Assembly: GCA_035260845.1 (NCBI GenBank)
Contig: DATFUL010000001.1
Coordinates: forward strand, 4,245 to 68,244
Source: Patescibacteria group bacterium
Lineage (GTDB): Bacteria; Patescibacteriota; Microgenomatia; UBA8517
Length of the DNA: 64,000 nucleotides
Direction: 5' to 3'
Shown here: piece by piece, positions 17,415-29,363 of the stretch
How positions within the stretch are numbered: position 1 is the stretch's first letter
Layout of the letters: the number at the start of each line of letters is the position of its first letter
Program-made: the position numbers and the translations under genes
Notes under the pieces: model-generated
Seen by the model: only the letters and a program-made list of their open reading frames with translations
Databases searched by the model: none
Told to the model about the DNA's origin: nothing

Positions 17415-17533
17415 GTTCTGGCGATGAGCTATTTTCGCGGTAGGTTGCCCCACAACTATCGTCACCGCTACAGCGTTTCACTTCTAAGTTCGGAAAGGGA
17501 TTAGGTGGTTCCACTGCGCACTGATCACCAGAA
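17415..17533 (-). rRNA. rrf: 5S ribosomal RNA
   Basis: The reverse complement reads TCTGGTGATCAGTGCGCAGTGGAACCACC...CCGAACTTAGAAGTGAAACGCTGTAGCGGTGACGATAGTTGTGGGG...GCCAGAAC, matching the 5S consensus. Flanked by inverted repeats AGAACACTGTTCTGG / CCAGAACAGTGTTCT. Confidence 0.85.
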
Positions 17534-17596
17534 CAGTGTTCTTAAAGTTTTTTGTTTTATATTAAAAGAGAAAGGTCGCGTCCAGAGTGTGTCTGG

Positions 17597-20910
<3,314 letters not shown>

Positions 20911-21128
20911 GACACCATATTCGCACTGAATATGATCGGGACGCGACCTTCCTCTTCTAATTACACGTCAGAATCGTCTGACGTGACAAAAAAACTTAAA
21001 CTTCACAAAATTTATTATTAATAAATTTTGCGTTATTTCTTTATGTTAATGAGCAATTAGCTCTTGTTTACTTAACAGCTAAAGGACAGCTCCGATCAAA
21101 ATCGGAGCTCGCCTCTACCTACTAAGTG

Positions 21129-21201
21129 TGGACCCAGTGGGGGTCGAACCCACTACCTCGTCATTGCAAATGACGCGTTCAGCCAGTTAAACTTTGGGCC
21201 C
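21129..21201 (-). tRNA. tRNA-Ala (anticodon UGC)
   Basis: Reverse complement GGGCCCAAAGTTTAACTGGCTGAACGCGTCATTTGCAATGACGAGGTAGTGGGTTCGACCCCCACTGGGTCCA. The anticodon loop TTTGCAA gives UGC. G3:U70 and the A73 discriminator (Ala identity elements) are present. The T-loop is GGTTCGA. Confidence 0.85.
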
Positions 21202-21408
21202 AAGTTTAGCTTCCAAAGCCGCTATTTCTACTTTTAGGCTTGCTACATAATCTTGCAAAACTTTGAGCTCGCTACTTGCAAGTTCTCCTGATGCTGATTC
21301 ATGTGCAACTCCCCTAAAATGACTGAGTCTAAATTTTACTTTAGCCTCATATTCAGATAATTTTATTAAAAGTGCTTCCAGTTTTTCCTTGTCAGACAGT
21401 AGTTTCAT
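21187..21408 (-). CDS. Small coiled-coil ORF (73 aa) inside the rRNA spacer; possibly spurious
   Basis: ORF only. It overlaps the 5' end of tRNA-Ala by about 14 nt. A terminator-like hairpin lies just 5' of it on the minus strand. Confidence 0.2.
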   Translation of the reverse strand: MKLLSDKEKLEALLIKLSEYEAKVKFRLSHFRGVAHESASGELASSELKVLQDYVASLKVEIAALEAKLGPKV

Positions 21409-21580
21409 GGCAAAAATAAACCAGCTTTTTGAGCTGGTTAAACTTATTTTGAGGTCAAATCAAGATCAATTACGCACGCAAAATTGCGTTTGTTTTAGTT
21501 GAAATTAGATAAGTTCTCATTAAATAGCTTTGTTCCGACTCAAAGACTAGGGGCAAGTATAGCAAAATCAGATATTAGCG

Positions 21581-21883
21581 TCAAGTAGCTGCGGCAACAG
21601 GATCAATTCTGGTATAAATTACCGGATGATTGGCCAATTTGATCTTAACTGGACCACCTTTTAAAGGATTGTCGGCTCTAGTACAAGGCTCAAGAACTAC
21701 CCTTGCAACCATTGCTGAAGATATGCTTTTTCTATACTTAACTTCCTCATGTCCGGCAATACGTTCGGAGATATCAAAATTTCCTATAACGCGATTTTTA
21801 ATTAGTGGGCAACTTGCAACATAGTCGCAAGTAACTCCAGGTACGCACTCTACACGGACAGAAACATCAAATTCAATAGACAT
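21581..21883 (-). CDS. Hypothetical 100-aa protein encoded between tRNA-Ile and tRNA-Ala on the rRNA strand
   Basis: ORF with balanced composition and several Cys (CVPGVTCDYVASCP). No recognised motif. Confidence 0.35.
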   Translation of the reverse strand: MSIEFDVSVRVECVPGVTCDYVASCPLIKNRVIGNFDISERIAGHEEVKYRKSISSAMVARVVLEPCTRADNPLKGGPVKIKLANHPVIYTRIDPVAAAT

Positions 21884-22069
21884 AGGGGGTTATTATATCA
21901 CAAATCTCCCGATTATGAGGGCTTTTTATCTGATTTCAAAAACAGTCTTTCCCACTTTAAGACCAGGTGATCATGATCGTTGTGGATTGGCTATCTGAAT
22001 TTGGGCATTTTCTGCTACCTTATTAAACGCATTTATAAAATTCTCCTCACCCATTAATAAAGAGAGTTT

Positions 22070-22144
22070 TGGTGGGTGCGCATGGGATCGAACCATGGAC
22101 CTCGTTCTTATCAGGAACGCGCTCTACCACTGAGCCACGCACCC
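22070..22144 (-). tRNA. tRNA-Ile (anticodon GAU), 3' CCA encoded
   Basis: Reverse complement GGGTGCGTGGCTCAGTGGTAGAGCGCGTTCCTGATAAGAACGAGGTCCATGGTTCGATCCCATGCGCACCCACCA. The anticodon loop CTGATAA gives GAU. Confidence 0.85.
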
Positions 22145-22265
22145 AAAACGCAAAGCTATTTTACCATTCATTTGATGAATGGCCAAGATCCTCTCTTACC
22201 ACGAGAAATTTAAATCCACATGTACCGAAAGCCTAGATCTTCAATTTGCTATATAATATTCTTGT

Positions 22266-23330
22266 ATGCCTGCTCTCACCACCCTGCTTCTTAAACTTCC
22301 TCGTAATCAAGATATTACCCCTGAGGCTGCAAAAACATTTCTTTCTGCTTTAACTCAAATCAATTCTGTCTCTACTTTTCAGAGACTACTTGGGACCCGT
22401 CCCCACCCTTTGGCTCTTGAGATTGCTGCTATAAATCAGCAAATACAATTTTTAATAACTTGCGATAACGAACTTGTTCCTTTTGTAAAAACTCAGATTC
22501 AAAGCAGTTACCCACTAGTCATTATTGAAAAGGTAGAAGATCCAATCCTTAGTCGGGATATGGAAATTATCGAATTAAAACTTGCAAAAGGTAGTTATTA
22601 CCCTATTGGTACTTACGATAAATTTGCAGATGTTGACCCAATAAGTTCCACCCTCTCCGTATTGTCAAAGGTAGAACCTACAGAGTTTGCCATTATTCAA
22701 ATATCACTTGAGGGAACACGAGGCGTTTGGCAATCTAAAGCCAATCAGTATGCGGACCGCGGCGTTAAAAATGAAGATGGTAGTTATCAGCCAAGATCGG
22801 ATAAAAACATCATAATCGAGAAAACTTCTTACCCAGGTTTTAAAGTTTCCATACGACTAGCTAGCAGTGCAACCAAAACCGCAAAAGAACTTGTTAATGC
22901 TTTTGGTGTCTTTGCTAGAGCCGACGCCAACTTTTTTAAGAAGAATTCTTCCATTTTTAATTCAGTTAAAGCACTTAATAAGAATATAAAAATAAGAAAA
23001 GTTGTGGGGAATCAGGTTTTGAACATTATGGAACTAGCAACTCTTTGGCATTTGCCTTCCGAAAAAATTAAAGTAACAGGAATAGCTTGGGGAACATCAG
23101 TTCTTTCAGAACCTCCCGACAACCTTCCAAATGCAGTTACTGCTACAGAAGAGGAAAAAATCATATCAATTTTTTTGGTAAAACTATTTTCAAAAACCAC
23201 GATACAATTTTTGGAATCAAAGATATTGATCGCCGCCGGCATATTTGGTCAATTGGTAAAACAGGAACAGGAAAAAGCACCCTTATTGCAAACATGGCAA
23301 TTGACGACATTAAAAAAGGCAAGGGTGTAG
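22266..23330 (+). CDS. N-terminal portion of a HerA/FtsK-superfamily (DUF87-like) ATPase, likely joined to the downstream ORF by a -1 frameshift at a T7 tract
   Basis: Sensible protein sequence continues up to ...TATEEEKIISIF at the T TTT TTG heptamer (23171-23177). Downstream of that point this frame loses conserved motifs, while the -1 frame carries the conserved ATPase sequence. Confidence 0.5.
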   Translation: MPALTTLLLKLPRNQDITPEAAKTFLSALTQINSVSTFQRLLGTRPHPLALEIAAINQQIQFLITCDNELVPFVKTQIQSSYPLVIIEKVEDPILSRDMEIIELKLAKGSYYPIGTYDKFADVDPISSTLSVLSKVEPTEFAIIQISLEGTRGVWQSKANQYADRGVKNEDGSYQPRSDKNIIIEKTSYPGFKVSIRLASSATKTAKELVNAFGVFARADANFFKKNSSIFNSVKALNKNIKIRKVVGNQVLNIMELATLWHLPSEKIKVTGIAWGTSVLSEPPDNLPNAVTATEEEKIISIFLVKLFSKTTIQFLESKILIAAGIFGQLVKQEQEKAPLLQTWQLTTLKKARV

Positions 23331-24403
23331 CCATTATCGACCCTCATGGAGACTTGTGCGATGTAATAATGAACTATATTCCAAAGCACAGAATTAACGA
23401 TGTTATTTATTTTAATCCGGCTGACAAAGACTACCCGATAGTTATCAATCCCTTAGAAGTTACGAATAAAGAAGAGGCTGAGCTTGTTGTTTCCGGAATT
23501 GTTTCGATATTTAATAAAATCTTTGGTTTTTCCTGGGGACCCCGCTTGGAATATATTTTACGAAACGCCCTAACAACCCTAGCCGAAGTCCCAAATTCAA
23601 CTCTTAAAGATGTTTCGCTTCTTTTAACCAATCAAACTTTTAGGACCAGGGTGGAAAATAGCATTAAAGACACAACGATGAAACAATTTTGGCGAGATGA
23701 ATTTGACCAAATGACCGACAAATTAAGACAAGAGGCTATTTCGCCGATTTTAAATAAAGTTGGCCAGTTTGTCACTTCCCCACTCATAAGGTCGGTTATA
23801 GGCCAACCAAAAAGCTCAATCAAACTTGACGACATTATGAACGAAGGAAAAATCCTAATTGCTAACCTGTCACAAGGAAAGCTGGGTGAGGATAACGCTG
23901 CCCTTCTTGGAGCAATGTTAATTACCAAACTCCAGCTTGCTGCTATGCATAGAGTCGACATGAAGGAAGAAGATAGACGGGATTTTTATTTATATGTTGA
24001 CGAGTTCCAAAACTTTGCCACAGGAAGCTTTATTAAAATTATGTCTGAGGCCCGCAAATATCATTTGAATATTATGCTTGCTAACCAATATATGGCCCAA
24101 ATTCCTGAGGAAGTCAGAAAATCAATCCTAGGAAACGCCGGGACAATAATGACTTTGGCTGTTGGAGCAAGCGATGCCGAAATACTATACAAAGAACTTG
24201 CAGAGGTTTTTTCACAAAATGACTTAGTTAATCTAGGTAACCACCAAATTGCTGCCAAAATGACGATTGACGGCAAAACAACAAGGCCATTTTTGGGAGT
24301 CACCCTTCCCCTTGGAACTTCCAATAACCAAAACCGGGATACGGTAATCCAGGTAAGCAGGGAGCGCTGGACACAAAAATTAAACCCTCAAAATAACCCA
24401 TAG
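23087..24403 (+). CDS. HerA/FtsK-like P-loop ATPase domain (DUF87-type); the real N-terminus is probably supplied by the upstream ORF, and the TTG start is an ORF-caller artefact
   Basis: Walker A RRRHIWSIGKTGTGKS and DPHGD (IIDPHGDLCDV). Walker B FYLYVDEFQNF. ARKYHLNIMLANQ ... motif typical of HerA/DUF87 and TraG-D-like ATPases. The first 30 aa of this frame look non-protein-like (CSYCYRRGKNH). Confidence 0.65.
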   Translation: MGNISSFRTSRQPSKCSYCYRRGKNHINFFGKTIFKNHDTIFGIKDIDRRRHIWSIGKTGTGKSTLIANMAIDDIKKGKGVAIIDPHGDLCDVIMNYIPKHRINDVIYFNPADKDYPIVINPLEVTNKEEAELVVSGIVSIFNKIFGFSWGPRLEYILRNALTTLAEVPNSTLKDVSLLLTNQTFRTRVENSIKDTTMKQFWRDEFDQMTDKLRQEAISPILNKVGQFVTSPLIRSVIGQPKSSIKLDDIMNEGKILIANLSQGKLGEDNAALLGAMLITKLQLAAMHRVDMKEEDRRDFYLYVDEFQNFATGSFIKIMSEARKYHLNIMLANQYMAQIPEEVRKSILGNAGTIMTLAVGASDAEILYKELAEVFSQNDLVNLGNHQIAAKMTIDGKTTRPFLGVTLPLGTSNNQNRDTVIQVSRERWTQKLNPQNNP

Positions 24404-24439
24404 TTGAAAAATCCCCAATTTTTGGTATAATTCCGCTAG

Positions 24440-24481
24440 TCCCAAAACATCCCACTTTGCGGGAGGACTTTGGGTTTTTTA
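24440..24481 (+). terminator. Putative Rho-independent terminator after the ATPase gene
   Basis: cccaaaac atccc actttgc gggagg actttggg followed by tttttt. Confidence 0.4.
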
Positions 24482-24640
24482 GCACATTTACAAGAGAAGT
24501 AAGAGTTTGTCTCAGAACCTGTGGGCTCAAAAAATAGAGCCTAGAGGCTCTGAGGCAGACAGAGAAAAAAGGAAGGAAATTAGGGAAGAAATAGTAAGTA
24601 TTGTGAAATTTCAAAAACGTTCAAACAAAAGGAGAACGAA

Positions 24641-25495
24641 ATGAAGAAGTTCGTAAGTTTACTCGTAATAGCGGCCGTTGTGTTTGCAGCTGTGGCGGTA
24701 ATTGTACCAGCCCTTGCAAAGCCAGCCGACCCAGGTGGAAGTGTTTGCGATCAAGACCCGTCATGTGATATTGTTCCCCCCTCAGATTCAGGTACGTGGA
24801 CAGCACCAAGTTCAGTGACTGTATTTTGCGGTAAGTTAGGGAACGACAAAACGTGTTGGGGTCAAGGCACAAACAACGTTGTCAGTGGAGTTGATGGTGC
24901 GTGTTGGGACATGTCAGTAAATGGAAGTATTGTAACTTGGAATAGGTTGTCGACGTCGAACGTTTGCCAAGACCCCTCACATTTTGAAGGATCCTACGGC
25001 AGTTCGTCAACATCAACCACAGTTCCAGATACTCAAGTTCCGAATACGGCAACACAAGTTCCGAATACGGCAACCACAGTTCCAGATACTCAAGTTCCGA
25101 ATACGGCAACACTAGAAAATACTGAAGTTGCCAGTACGGGAACACCGATTAATACTGAGGTTGTTGATAATACATCAACTCCAGTACCAGCAGGTACAGG
25201 AACACCAGTTGTGAATACTCCAACTGATCCAGCTCCGACAGAAGAATCTGCTGTTGATCCAACGTATTGCGACCCTAACGACCACACCATTCACAACACT
25301 GTTGGTAGTATTCCGGATGGAATGCTAAAGGCGGATGACCCTGCCTGTAAACCAGCTGTAGTTGTGACCGAAAATTGGTGCACCGTGCATTTCGGTAAAG
25401 GGTCTTTGATATGGTGTCAGTGGGGAAAGGGAGGAACGGAAAGCCTGTGGGATATCTTTGTTACTAAAGTAACAAAGATGTTTCGTTCCCAGTAG
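24641..25495 (+). CDS. Secreted Cys-rich protein with tandem VP(N/D)T(A/Q)T repeats
   Basis: Strong Shine-Dalgarno sequence AAAGGAGAACGAAATG. Signal peptide MKKFVSLLVIAAVVFAAVAVIVPALA. About 16 Cys residues. 21-nt tandem DNA repeats encode TQVPNTATQVPNTATTVPDTQVPNTAT. Confidence 0.65.
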   Translation: MKKFVSLLVIAAVVFAAVAVIVPALAKPADPGGSVCDQDPSCDIVPPSDSGTWTAPSSVTVFCGKLGNDKTCWGQGTNNVVSGVDGACWDMSVNGSIVTWNRLSTSNVCQDPSHFEGSYGSSSTSTTVPDTQVPNTATQVPNTATTVPDTQVPNTATLENTEVASTGTPINTEVVDNTSTPVPAGTGTPVVNTPTDPAPTEESAVDPTYCDPNDHTIHNTVGSIPDGMLKADDPACKPAVVVTENWCTVHFGKGSLIWCQWGKGGTESLWDIFVTKVTKMFRSQ

Positions 25496-25523
25496 CGTAA
25501 AGAGGAAACAGGGATCTGCCCCC

Positions 25524-26594
25524 TTGTTTCTTCTCGGGATGCCGGGAGACTATCGGTATACCGATACTCCCCCCAACCCCCCCCTAACCCACCCTTTAAA
25601 AAAACTCACTTACTTCTCTTGCCATAATTTGACAACTAATTTTTTTGAAATTAATTGTGAAATTATGGATAGAAAAATAATGTATGCATCAGCTATAGCC
25701 ATTGAATTCTGGCTAGCTTCTTGTGCAAAACAACCAAAACCGATCTTAGCATCTGTAACACCAACGATTGCGCCTCCTGCTGAATTTACACCGACTAAAA
25801 CCGAAACCCCAATGCCAACTGCAACTGAAAGAGCCATAATTACAGTCGATGAACGTTTTAAACTTGGCAACTACGATGCGGCAGTCGATCAATTAACAAT
25901 AAAGGTCGGGAAAGAATTAAGAGATTTACTAGGATATTCACTTCTTGATTCCGGAAAGTTTAGTGTTGATATTCCGCTTGCTATTAAAAGTAATTCATTA
26001 GGTACTGAAGACCAATTCAGAATATTTGATGAAGGATCAAGAAATCGTAACAGTGATGTGGTTATGAAGGCGGCCAATGGCCGTGGTGGAAGCCATCCAA
26101 ACCCTGGCTACATAATCGCGCTTGATGCCTACCCTGGCAAAGAGCCAAAGGGTGTTGCAATTTATACCCACGATGTTCAAACTTTTCCATCCCCAGCCCC
26201 GACTGGTGACCTCGGCCTTGATATTTTGCAATGGGTAAGTAAGCATCCCGATAGAAAAGATGAGGTTAAGGGTAAGACGGCTGAGTTTTCCACCGACAAA
26301 GGTATAAGTTTTGAAGGCGAAATTGTTCATGCTGGTTATGTAAGTCAATATTTTTGGACAGGAGGAGATGGAAAAAATAGCCCATTTAGAACGTTCACAA
26401 GCGGTGACAATATTTTATTTGCAGACTCCGAAGCCCTCGGAATTCCACAAGATGTAGTTAAAGGTCTTGCAGAAGATGAATATTTAATAGTGATTGACAG
26501 TTGTTTAGGAGGAGACCCTGGAGAAACAACTGAAAGTATTAACGAAAATTCCAAAAACAGACTTGTTCTTGTCTTTAAAGTCAAAATAAAATAA
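25524..26594 (+). CDS. Hypothetical lipoprotein; probable true start at the internal Met around 25667-25682
   Basis: Internal MDRKIMYASAIAIEFWLASCAKQ carries a lipobox (LASC). No catalytic motif recognised. Confidence 0.45.
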   Translation: MFLLGMPGDYRYTDTPPNPPLTHPLKKLTYFSCHNLTTNFFEINCEIMDRKIMYASAIAIEFWLASCAKQPKPILASVTPTIAPPAEFTPTKTETPMPTATERAIITVDERFKLGNYDAAVDQLTIKVGKELRDLLGYSLLDSGKFSVDIPLAIKSNSLGTEDQFRIFDEGSRNRNSDVVMKAANGRGGSHPNPGYIIALDAYPGKEPKGVAIYTHDVQTFPSPAPTGDLGLDILQWVSKHPDRKDEVKGKTAEFSTDKGISFEGEIVHAGYVSQYFWTGGDGKNSPFRTFTSGDNILFADSEALGIPQDVVKGLAEDEYLIVIDSCLGGDPGETTESINENSKNRLVLVFKVKIK

Positions 26595-27400
26595 TGTCTG
26601 AAATTACTCCAAAAAAGATTGCCCTTTTTACCTTTGCAGCCGCATTGGGTGTAGCGGCTATTGCCCCAGTTGTTGCTAAAGCCATGGAAATAAATAATGA
26701 CAATAAGCCAAAACTTTTGACACAAGTACCGCCACTAACTTTTACACCTAACCCCACCCAAATTCCTAACGTGCACCAAACAGCATTCCCCACTCCATAT
26801 TTACTTGAAATAAAAGCCAAAATTCCAGTAGACATTCCTTTTTTTTCCCAGCTTGAACCCGTCTATAAGCAGATTTATTTCCAAGATGGAACTTCCTGGA
26901 GTAAGGTGGGTTGTGAAATTTTCGCGGGAGCAATGTTAGATAGAACCACTCCTAAAACCTATTATCAGAATTCATTGGATTACTTTGCCAAGCAGAGAAA
27001 AGACGGCACACAAAGATTTTCTAAAGATGGAAGCAGTTACGAAGATCTTATTGCTGTTTTGACAGACAAAGGTCACACATTTATAGAACTTTCCAAAGGA
27101 AATAACACAAAATTTGAAGATGTTAGGGCTTTAATTAAGAAATATACCGATCATGGTATTCCCGTATTGGTAAGGGGGGCTATTTGGCTTGGAAACGGCA
27201 CCCTAGGACATATGTCGGTTATTGTTGATGTCAATGAAAATGGAGGCTTAGTCTCAAATGACTCAATTTGGGGTAAAAATTACGTAATTGATGAATCAAA
27301 ATATCTTGAGGAAATAAAAAGTAGGGAAAGAGATGTAGACTCTACCAATAGCCTCAAGGTTTTCGCTGTTTACCCACCAACTACAGTTCCTACCCCTTAA
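26594..27400 (+). CDS. Secreted C39-like (papain-fold) cysteine peptidase domain protein
   Basis: Signal peptide. The IPFFSQLEPVYKQ...KVGCEIFAGAMLD segment resembles the VPxxxQ...xCGxAxxAM motif of peptidase_C39-like domains. A downstream candidate catalytic His lies in GTLGHMSVIVDV. Confidence 0.5.
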   Translation: MSEITPKKIALFTFAAALGVAAIAPVVAKAMEINNDNKPKLLTQVPPLTFTPNPTQIPNVHQTAFPTPYLLEIKAKIPVDIPFFSQLEPVYKQIYFQDGTSWSKVGCEIFAGAMLDRTTPKTYYQNSLDYFAKQRKDGTQRFSKDGSSYEDLIAVLTDKGHTFIELSKGNNTKFEDVRALIKKYTDHGIPVLVRGAIWLGNGTLGHMSVIVDVNENGGLVSNDSIWGKNYVIDESKYLEEIKSRERDVDSTNSLKVFAVYPPTTVPTP

Positions 27401-27411
27401 TTTTTCCACTA

Positions 27412-27455
27412 AAAAACCACCCCTTCACGAAGTGTGAATATTGAGGTGGTTTTAA
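27412..27455 (+). terminator. Putative Rho-independent terminator ending the plus-strand cassette, just before the 16S 3' end
   Basis: aaaaaaccacc cttcacgaagtg ... ggtggtttt hairpin with a T-tract. Confidence 0.4.
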
Positions 27456-27657
27456 ACTATGCACAGTATGACTGTCAAAGATTGGTTAACCGGTTAGAAT
27501 TCAATACCACTCCGCACAAAGGCGTCGGGTATTTCGTCTAACTACATGTTTTAGGACTCAAAATATGACTGAAAGCGTTTAAACCCGTTTTATTATTTTG
27601 ACAATTCAAAAAAGTCAAAACGGCGTTCTTAAAAACTGGGTGAAATTATCACTCCTT

Positions 27658-29125
<1,468 letters not shown>

Positions 29126-29363
29126 TAGTGCTAAAAATGGCATTTCAGCCATAGCTAGCGATCCTGCTTCCAGTCATATTTTGAATCCCAATACTGCTAG
29201 TATGGGTCGTTCCAAACTTCGCACAGAGGCTTGGAACACTTTGATTAACCTGAATCTTCGAAAGTAAAAGTACCCACAAATGAAGTTTTTACCCTGAAGG
29301 GAAGTTAACCTCCTACTCGAATATTGGTATTATATCACAGTGGAAAACATGGTCAATCCCAGA

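Follow-up and report, generated by a model that had tools for sequence, protein, structure and literature searches.

An ATPase gene that is conserved among Woesebacteria-like Patescibacteria is divided between two reading frames in the window (the whole 64-kb stretch of DNA analysed here), which derives from an uncultivated soil member of that lineage with a reduced genome of 39% GC. We attribute the division, with a probability of roughly two in three, to a plain and recent one-base deletion that either inactivated the gene or left it leaky.

The gene is single-copy and chromosomal. Its parts are two overlapping ORFs on the forward strand (all features below lie on this strand): an upstream ORF of 354 aa in frame 0 (22266-23330) and an ORF of 438 aa in the -1 frame that contains the ATPase half (23087-24403). 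The ORFs have 244 nt in common, and one -1 correction yields a protein of 712 aa. A first-pass annotation of the sequence had described the 244-nt overlap, a fusion of about 712 aa by a single -1 slip and a T TTT TTG heptamer (23171-23177) after an A6 tract. All three were recovered; the heptamer, located in a T7 run (23170-23176) that encodes N-F-F, is in phase with frame 0. The accompanying proposal that one ATPase gene had been split by a -1 frameshift is borne out by the homologues, which are single proteins (~700-840 aa) that cover 99-100% of the conceptual fusion; all 240 listed are single proteins (~700-900 aa).

The public record already holds two CDSs for this gene, HKB88039.1 and HKB88040.1. 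The latter (369 aa, 23294-24403) begins at ATG 23294, after the Walker A motif GKTGTGKS (23255-23278), and the P-loop is therefore absent from the CDS as annotated. The annotation would be better if the two CDSs were merged or flagged as a frameshifted gene.

Position of the frame break

One base was restored at each position, and the resulting versions were scored against an HMM of 120 homologues. The score reached its maximum (1385.3 bits) when the base was restored within the A6 run at 23155-23160, whereas restoration anywhere in the T7 run gave 1373.7 bits, 11.6 below the A6 site. The first-pass annotation had placed the switch of frame exactly at the heptamer; the homology switches at the A6 run, 12-15 nt further upstream. 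Removal of two nucleotides scored at best 1378.9 bits, and a 2-nt insertion was rejected as the lesion, being 6.4 bits worse than a 1-nt deletion. The sequence at the junction is ...TATEEEKIISIF in frame 0 and ...FGKTIFKNHDTIFGIKDIDRRRHIWSIGKTGTGKS in the -1 frame. The -1 frame already encodes K-N-H-I-N-F-F-G from 23156, as in the family consensus EE[DE]K-x-H-I-N-F-F-G-K, and the ancestral reading is ...TATEEEK-N-HINFFGK.

Most simply, the lesion is a one-base deletion from A7 to A6 that converted GAA AAA AAT CAT to GAA AAA ATC AT... Seven of 131 relatives, L084 (GAGAAAAAAAATATT) among them, have an in-frame A7 or A8 here, and T runs of 6-7 stand at the position of the heptamer in 59 of 131 intact relatives. 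The heptamer is possibly a secondary slippage point and not the switch of homology. The direction of the deletion from A7, its recency and the loss of function are all inferred. The break separates an N-terminal module in frame 0 (residues 1-298 of the ancestral gene, DUF8128 and a flexible linker; 22266-23159) from a C-terminal module (23156-24403), whose residues 298-712 are read in the -1 frame and correspond by Pfam and Foldseek to a P-loop ATPase of the TrwB/VirD4 type.

The frameshift in independent assemblies

The frameshift is a true feature of the genome of this strain and no assembly error. At least five contigs (ERZ27286494, assembled with MEGAHIT; JGI 3300026320; JGI 3300002907; Logan SRR10360641) encode precisely this truncated product of 354 aa. 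Four of them, drawn from four sample accessions, match the window across the site at 100.000% identity over 2.9-5.8 kb. This establishes independent assembly and not independent sampling, as physical samples or read sets may be common to several accessions. In a fifth data set (SRR5258706) there is a 354-aa variant, P0242, on record as protein only, with the same tail and four substitutions (L51F, Y162H, P190Q and F213L), all at columns that are 92.5-100% conserved in the family. These changes are a hint of decay, and they could also be errors of low coverage or protein assembly.

The first-pass annotation had listed a homopolymer sequencing error among its options, and we consider it very unlikely that the genome truly carries A7 (or T8) with an intact gene. 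The break does sit in a homopolymer, and the sample accessions might come from overlapping read sets, but the MEGAHIT k141, JGI and Logan pipelines and the protein-level assembly of another run all agree. In short-read consensus sequence a 6-nt run is not error-prone, and other homopolymers in the 64 kb break no gene: of the 45 with at least 7 nt, 28 lie within long ORFs whose frame is unbroken. The split gene is the only long same-strand ORF overlap in the window. The run might vary in length between A6 and A7, through phase variation or a minority intact allele.

Intact relatives and the search for an intact allele

A single continuous tblastn HSP spans the whole protein at 78 of 81 genome loci; of the remaining three, two stop at the end of a contig and one, from a SAG, changes frame at about residue 631. 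Among 80 metagenome loci, 68 have a single HSP across the junction, ten are cut by contig ends, one is an ATPase-only homologue (L158) and one (L155) has a different deletion near the junction. The junction and Walker A are in one frame at 131 loci, and the frameshift at 23155-23160 is absent from the loci of all ~146 junction-spanning relatives. It is sporadic and lineage-specific, probably recent in evolution, and is not conserved recoding. Homologues encoded as two separate complete genes, which the first-pass annotation would have counted against a split gene, are absent from close relatives. A natural two-gene architecture was rejected, N-domain-sized cluster representatives being either truncated by contigs (L166 stops at a contig end) or unrelated (the gene that comes after DUF8128 in L167 has no relation to it); representatives of 300-345 aa show no excess.

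The restored 712-aa sequence, in both versions, was absent from the collections on exact look-up. An exact 28-mer scan of metagenome_contigs gave no match, so the strain is absent from that collection, and a protein-guided metagenome scan retrieved nothing nearer than 76-80% identity. The nearest intact relative is 76.7% identical. A search with the junction peptide found nothing above 76% identity and is a weak negative, since the candidates were short proteins only. The junction peptides of a rescued full-length product would be EEEKNHINFFGK or EEEKIISIFFGK. As an intact allele of the lineage is absent from the collections, every observation of the lineage is frameshifted, which would also match a frameshift that is tolerated or bypassed.

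A recent origin is suggested by the state of the two halves, neither of which contains further stop codons or frameshifts. Of 355 columns with at least 97% conservation, the restored protein matches 346 (97.5%), and all nine deviations are conservative; their number matches its isolated position, a sequence at 79% identity having eight. In a test for relaxed constraint no other sequence had as many private deviations at conserved columns as the window protein (9/355); since none is as isolated either, the count is not interpretable as decay. The tail of 56 codons that follows the break in frame 0 is long genome-wide (P ~0.012), whereas at least 50 open codons occur at the equivalent position in 9% of relatives, and a two-frame overlap as long in both directions at 3% of the relatives' equivalent positions. 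The overlap is therefore unusual genome-wide and only mildly so at this position. The retained conserved residues and the long overlap would also be expected if both halves were still under selection.

Domain architecture of the intact protein

The intact protein is soluble and is composed of a DUF8128 domain, a flexible linker and a TrwB/VirD4-like hexameric-type P-loop ATPase. The N-terminal 300 aa, initially regarded as unannotated, are Pfam DUF8128 (PF26449), with a model that resembles the VirB4 N-domain; PF26449 is a precomputed match in nearly all homologues, as it is in the window's own product of 354 aa. The AF2 model of the N-domain (pLDDT 85.1, pTM 0.85) is a folded alpha/beta domain, with low confidence in the linker (276-290). 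Its best fold match in the PDB is VirB4/TrwK of R388 (7o42_A, E 2.7e-5, TMq 0.51), and the top 12 matches are all TrwK/VirB4 (E 2.7e-5 to 2.8e-3, TMq 0.44-0.51), at an rmsd of ~7 Å and 7-10% identity. The top matches of the full-length model are also VirB4 chains (rmsd ~17 Å). The Pfam VirB4 family was not matched, and NCBIfam VirB4/TrbE fell far below cut-off.

The ATPase half matches TrwB_AAD_bind (1.6e-9; 37.6 bits, cut-off 20.5), DUF87 (5.4e-8) and TraG-D_C (2.8e-7; 30.9 bits, cut-off 22) in Pfam, and Foldseek retrieves TrwB (1e9r/1gki, TMt 0.62-0.67, rmsd 4.2-4.6). It superimposes on TrwB of R388 over ~400 columns and shares Walker A, Walker B (YLYVDE) and the all-alpha domain inserted in TrwB. 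Identity, however, is 16%, and sequence similarity is limited to the P-loop region (E 1.3e-4). Unlike TrwB, the protein has no N-terminal transmembrane segment and no nearby conjugation genes: the maximum 19-residue Kyte-Doolittle mean is 1.39, below the 1.6 of a transmembrane anchor, and neither a relaxase nor VirB4 was found in the flanks or among the ten largest ORFs of the window, which include Rho, RadA-like, FtsH, DNA ligase and PilB-like proteins. NCBIfam matches to the TraD subfamilies were below cut-off (SXT_TraD 40 bits against 366; conj_TOL_TraD 20.6 against 647).

The HerA and anti-phage framing of the first-pass annotation did not hold, as the best Pfam and fold matches are to the T4SS coupling protein TrwB and the gene has rRNA and tRNA genes beside it in place of effectors; no adjacent Sir2 or DUF4297 effector gene is present at the locus. 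PADLOC HerA models matched short stretches only (56-66 residues, E 4e-8 and 5e-8), the best PADLOC match being mad8 (9.6e-18) over the ATPase region. A defence-type HerA was rejected on these partial matches, on the fold matches of the N-domain model, which are to VirB4 and not to HerA, and on the lack of partner genes.

A survey of Patescibacteria reports 5,713 T4CP homologues from 2,918 genomes, of which no more than 148 lie near virB4; it adds that t4cp did not prove essential in Ca. S. epibionticum ML1 and that it may have been exapted (Microb Genom 2025, PMC12102498). The split-gene protein resembles these orphan VirD4-type T4CPs in its TrwB_AAD_bind and TraG-D_C matches and in its location away from virB4 and relaxase genes. 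It differs from them in lacking a membrane anchor and in having a DUF8128 N-domain with a predicted VirB4-N-like fold. No literature on DUF8128 or on the sample accessions was found. The more useful by-product of the analysis is the family itself, a soluble DUF8128 joined to a TrwB-like ATPase on a VirB4-like domain plan.

Consequences of the frameshift and alternative explanations

In the model we favour, a 712-aa gene would have lost one A from an A-rich run of Glu and Lys codons (23155-23160), in the linker between DUF8128 and the ATPase. Translation from ATG 22266 would then yield DUF8128 followed by a 56-residue nonsense tail (...IISIFLVKLFSK...KKARV; 23160-23330, stop TAG 23328-23330). 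The ATPase half would be left without a proper start of its own, and full-length protein would arise at most as a small fraction, through unprogrammed slippage at A6 or T7. Most likely, then, the gene no longer functions or its expression is strongly reduced. Among the three options of the first-pass annotation, recent pseudogenisation fits best. Like homopolymer-indel pseudogenes, the gene carries a one-base change in the length of an A run and is otherwise intact and conserved; its run derives from A-rich Lys and Glu codons in a low-GC reduced genome, and low-level rescue by slippage is conceivable. In the endosymbionts Buchnera and Blochmannia, frameshifts in poly(A) tracts are partly rescued by polymerase slippage; the rescued tracts are typically 9-10 nt or longer, and in Blochmannia the frameshift is conserved across related species. 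Here, by contrast, the run is 6 nt only and no relative shares the frameshift.

The first-pass annotation had also offered programmed frameshifting. The split gene resembles dnaX and IS3 sites in its A-/U-rich slippery run and in the downstream domain borne by the -1 frame, and an in-phase heptamer within a 244-nt overlap agrees with a conserved programmed -1 ribosomal frameshift of this type at U UUU UUG. Such recoding is nevertheless extremely improbable, because the homology switches upstream of the heptamer and the ~146 junction-spanning relatives have an uninterrupted ORF, many carrying AAT TTT TTT G in frame. Neither a stimulatory structure nor an Rfam match was found at the site: where the first-pass annotation had advised a search for a stem-loop 5-9 nt 3' of the heptamer, MFE z-scores (-1.69 for 23161-23230, +0.33 for 23177-23250 and +0.50 for 23140-23260) indicate weak AU helices only. 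At the true break, moreover, the in-phase heptamers (G GAA AAA and A AAA ATC) are non-canonical, and the full-length product is the ancestral single-frame protein of the DUF8128-ATPase family, unlike the dnaX and IS3 cases. The heptamer is no more frequent than chance; in-phase X XXY YYZ (Y = A/T) occurs 122 times in 47.5 kb of long ORFs (~1/390 nt), six of these being T TTT TTG, and A/T runs of at least 6 nt occur at ~1/379 nt, or 0.68 expected in a 259-nt overlap. A programmed frameshift at U UUU UUG was rejected on the position of the homology, non-conservation, lack of structure and chance frequency.

More broadly, the frameshift might be tolerated, with functional protein still made by slippage at A6/T7 (as recoding or an ON/OFF switch) or as separate polypeptides. 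We regard this as unlikely; if true, it would be the first documented case in a Patescibacterium of a highly conserved orphan VirB4/T4CP-like ATPase that is rescued or switched at the level of expression. Maintenance by transcriptional or -1 ribosomal slippage at A6, the heptamer or both, for instance by P-site Lys AAA re-pairing on A AAA, is in itself a rather poor prospect, whether as lineage-specific recoding or as a phase-variable contingency site. Continued full-length expression would mean that selection still acts on both halves, which is in keeping with the lack of further lesions and the 97.5% of conserved columns retained, with a frame overlap in the upper tail and with the presence of the frameshift in every copy sampled from the lineage. 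The linker, which should tolerate changes in structure (low confidence at 276-290 in AF2, with the ATPase domain beginning at junction residues 295-309), contains two runs prone to slippage at a distance of 10 nt; the heptamer T TTT TTG is in phase, and a weak SD-like GAGGA (23151-23155) stands 15 nt upstream of it, the 16S 3' end having a standard anti-SD (CACCUCCUUUCU). Yet the GAGGA corresponds to conserved Glu codons and is also found in intact relatives, no relative has the frameshift, and neither a canonical phase at the homology-supported site nor a downstream stem-loop or pseudoknot is present. Heptamers of this kind are common, at ~1/390 nt. Efficient transcriptional slippage in bacteria, as in dnaX, IS elements and endosymbiont poly(A) tracts, takes place at runs of ~9 nt or more, a length that A6 and T7 do not reach. 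Doubtful to a greater degree is a functional split into DUF8128 with its new tail and an ATPase started at TTG 23087-23089, by which the frameshift would effectively have fissioned the gene. The break falls at a domain boundary, ATPase-only (L158) and DUF8128-only (L167) relatives occur naturally, the -1 frame is open from 23072, and AGGA stands 5 nt upstream of the TTG. The -1 frame has, however, no ATG, GTG or TTG before Walker A other than this one, which makes it the sole route to a separate complete ATPase half, and its use would add 24 nonsense residues. Its AGGA derives from conserved T-G codons and is thus no evidence of a real start; gene callers choose ATG 23294, which excludes Walker A. 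No close relative has a two-gene arrangement, and the gene downstream of L167 is unrelated.

The one-base deletion itself matters little, being one more homopolymer indel allele. It does show that disruption can befall a gene whose identity is 72-77% among many genomes of Woesebacteria-like organisms, and in a strain that several metagenome assemblies have recovered, in agreement with the orphan T4CP homologue not found essential in a cultured Saccharibacterium (PMC12102498).

Genomic neighbourhood

The gene is flanked by rRNA and tRNA genes, with tRNA-Ile upstream, and by ORFs devoid of Pfam matches, among them the three downstream ORFs. In several relatives it is flanked directly by tRNA-Ile and 16S, and it occupies the slot between 16S and tRNA-Ile/23S in 57 of 81 related loci. 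This fixed position in the Woesebacteria-like clade, unlike that of the orphan T4CPs (PMC12102498), marks a conserved splitting of the rRNA operon. The slot is more curious than the frameshift, and offers a lead to the function of a widespread uncharacterised protein.

Position of the frame break

The split ATPase gene consists of an upstream ORF (22266..23330, + strand, 354 aa; frame 0) and a downstream ORF (23087..24403, + strand, 438 aa; −1 frame) that overlap by 244 nt. The overlap contains an A6 run (23155-23160), a T7 run (23170-23176) and a T TTT TTG heptamer (23171-23177) in phase with frame 0; the first-pass annotation had described these ORFs, their overlap and the heptamer accurately. 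Correcting the frame by −1 gives a protein of 712 aa, hereafter the restored protein. Because the downstream CDS is annotated from ATG 23294, 3′ of the Walker A motif GKTGTGKS (23255-23278), its product would be ATPase-dead; TTG 23087 is the sole start codon upstream in the ATPase frame. At 56 codons, the nonsense tail of frame 0 is longer than usual in this genome (P about 0.012). Off-frames are often open at the equivalent position in relatives, 3% of them equally long in both directions, and we would not read much into the length of the tail or of the overlap.

Alignment with 15 homologues gave the junction consensus ...TATEE[DE]K-x-HINFFGKTIFKN..., and the −1 frame of the window reads K-N-H-I-N-F-F-G-K already from 23156, indicating that similarity to the family shifts out of frame 0 in the A6 run, 12-15 nt upstream of the heptamer. 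Every possible one-base restoration was scored with an HMM of the 120 best homologues. A single plateau of 1385.3 bits was observed at 23155-23160 and 1373.7 bits throughout the T7 run, while the best two-base removal reached 1378.9 bits. The proposed switch at the heptamer was thus not borne out. The simplest history would be GAA AAA AAT CAT (A7; E-K-N-H) shortened to A6. Seven of 131 relatives have an in-frame A7 or A8 run at this position (L084, for instance, reads GAG AAA AAA AAT ATT AAT TTT TTT GC), and T runs of 6-7 lie within the N-F-F codons of 59/131. Slippery-looking sequence at this site simply follows from Glu/Lys/Asn/Phe codons at a genomic GC content of 39%, and in-phase X XXY YYZ heptamers turn up roughly every 390 nt in the window's coding sequence.

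Origin of the split

At least five contigs encode exactly the 354-aa product with its nonsense tail. They come from four accessions (ENA ERZ27286494, assembled with MEGAHIT; JGI 3300026320; JGI 3300002907; Logan SRR10360641) that may have physical samples in common. Four retrieved contigs with differing ends were 100.000% identical to the window across 2.9-5.8 kb covering the break, and a further protein, from SRR5258706 (P0242; equivalent to window 22266-23330), is a 354-aa variant with the identical tail and four substitutions. At NCBI the two pieces are HKB88039.1 (hypothetical protein VKC53_00130) and HKB88040.1 (type IV secretory system conjugative DNA transfer family protein), both from a Patescibacteria MAG. 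Of the window's 45 homopolymers of at least 7 nt, 28 lie inside long ORFs and leave the frame unbroken, and no long same-strand ORFs other than these two overlap. A random assembly error or homopolymer miscall is unlikely given the contigs from four accessions, the SRR5258706 variant, the unbroken homopolymers and the sole long overlap.

A programmed frameshift, one of three options in the first-pass annotation, which advised a search for a downstream stem-loop, was rejected, since relatives do not share it and neither RNA structure nor an Rfam element was detected. The 240 listed protein homologues, from Woesebacteria-like and Shapirobacteria-like clades, are without exception single polypeptides of about 700-900 aa that combine DUF8128 with TrwB_AAD_bind (plus DUF87 and TraG-D_C). 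One uninterrupted tblastn HSP spanned the protein in 78/81 genome loci, the others being cut by contig ends (two) or shifted in a single-cell assembly (one). The junction lay within one HSP in 68 of 80 metagenome loci, with ten more cut by contig ends. Comparative support for programmed frameshifting was therefore found in none of these 240 proteins, 81 genome and 80 metagenome loci. Folding downstream of the A6 or T7 run was no better than in shuffled controls (z = −1.69, +0.33, +0.50), and Rfam gave no match around the split site. The Shine-Dalgarno-like GAGGA (23151-23155) encodes conserved Glu codons and is present in intact relatives too.

Other broken or partial loci were seen. L155 (3340-3470) carries an independent lesion some 10 residues past the break seen in the window, with the KTIFKNRDT segment deleted and the frame changed, and L158 (1314-2777) encodes an ATPase-only homologue starting at the junction. 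At L167 (15-959) a hairpin and then an unrelated gene come after a DUF8128-only ORF. The shifted single-cell assembly, L055, has its frameshift near residue 631 (about 7871-7884).

Neither half of the split gene contains further stop codons or frameshifts, and the restored protein keeps 346 of 355 columns of at least 97% conservation (120 homologues); the lesion would on these grounds be young relative to lineage divergence, or else the gene is still under selection. The nine deviations are all conservative and match those of similarly isolated sequences (the nearest neighbour here is 76.7% identical; a sequence at 79% has eight). The substitutions in the SRR5258706 variant (L51F, Y162H, P190Q, F213L) all fall at columns 92.5-100% conserved, which hints at relaxed constraint; they could reflect early pseudogene decay or errors of low-coverage protein-level assembly.

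Taken together, sequence comparison indicates that the split is real and located in the A6 run. It is best explained by a recent, lineage-specific one-base deletion within that run, which would leave this conserved DUF8128/TrwB-like ATPase gene either as a pseudogene or with strongly reduced expression. Even jointly, leaky slippage, phase variation and a functional division into two polypeptides are rather unlikely.

Identity of the encoded protein

Residues 324-653 matched Pfam TrwB_AAD_bind (1.6e-9), DUF87 (5.4e-8) and TraG-D_C (2.8e-7); NCBIfam TraD, CedD and VirB4-type models matched far below their cut-offs. In a PDB sequence search TrwB was the sole match, confined to the P-loop region. 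Modelled with AF2 (pLDDT 84.7), the restored protein matched TrwB (TMt 0.62-0.67, rmsd 4.2-4.6) as well as HerA, DotL and Cag-beta; no transmembrane segment was found in this protein.

The N-terminal 300 aa, previously considered unannotated, correspond over 298 residues to Pfam DUF8128 (22266-23159). The stand-alone AF2 model of this domain (pLDDT 85.1, pTM 0.85) resembles the N-terminal domain of VirB4/TrwK. Because only VirB4/TrwK chains were matched at E ≤2.8e-3 (top 12 PDB matches, TMq 0.44-0.51), the domain plan appears VirB4-like, though the similarity is modest. The family is annotated as T4CP/DUF87 but may in fact represent soluble ATPases with a VirB4-like two-domain build, and the frame break lies in the flexible linker joining the two modules. 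A defence HerA, as the suggested link to anti-phage systems implied, was rejected: PADLOC returned only fragmentary HerA matches (and a mad8 match over the ATPase region), and no effector gene adjoins the split gene. Orphan VirD4-type T4CP homologues number in the thousands in Patescibacteria, mostly distant from virB4, and that of Ca. S. epibionticum ML1 was not found essential, with exaptation possible (PMC12102498).

Genomic context

The split gene sits among rRNA genes running on the opposite strand (17416-29128), in the order 5S, 23S (with a group I intron), tRNA-Ala, tRNA-Ile, split gene with three Pfam-less ORFs, and 16S (27660-29128, −); 5.5 kb of + strand protein genes thus part 16S from the other − strand RNA genes. 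The same order and orientation were found in 57/81 related loci (noted for L005-L059; Rfam confirmation in five), where the DUF8128-ATPase gene diverges from tRNA-Ile and converges on 16S. Almost every relative of ≥58% identity has the gene in this slot. rRNA genes are commonly unlinked in Patescibacteria (bioRxiv 10.1101/705046); no description of a conserved DUF8128-ATPase tenant between 16S and tRNA-Ile/23S was found in the literature searched. The remaining window is ordinary chromosome, with Rho, RadA-like, FtsH, DNA ligase and PilB-like genes.

No Shine-Dalgarno sequence precedes ATG 22266 (22240-22266), and the 16S anti-SD in the window is standard. TATAAT lies about 9 nt upstream of this ATG, and the mRNA may accordingly be leaderless. 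Facing tRNA-Ile is a promoter-like site (22186-22158, −), consistent with divergent promoters within the 120-nt gap.

The 23S intron (17927-18168, −; Rfam RF00028, 58.5 bits) lies in a 23S span of 3311 nt, versus 2925 nt for the model; the 23S genes of two related loci, L005 and L055, have similar introns. Between tRNA-Ala and tRNA-Ile, two rRNA-strand (−) ORFs of 73 and 100 aa (21187-21408 and 21581-21883) lack Pfam matches and are called as genes on two public contigs (L001, L002). The three ORFs between the ATPase gene and 16S (24641-27400, +; 284, 356 and 268 aa) likewise have no Pfam match; the 284-aa ORF encodes a hydrophobic N-terminal segment and, with its TQVPNTAT repeats, a repetitive stretch rich in Thr, Pro and Val. 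In several relatives these ORFs are missing and the ATPase gene lies directly next to 16S.
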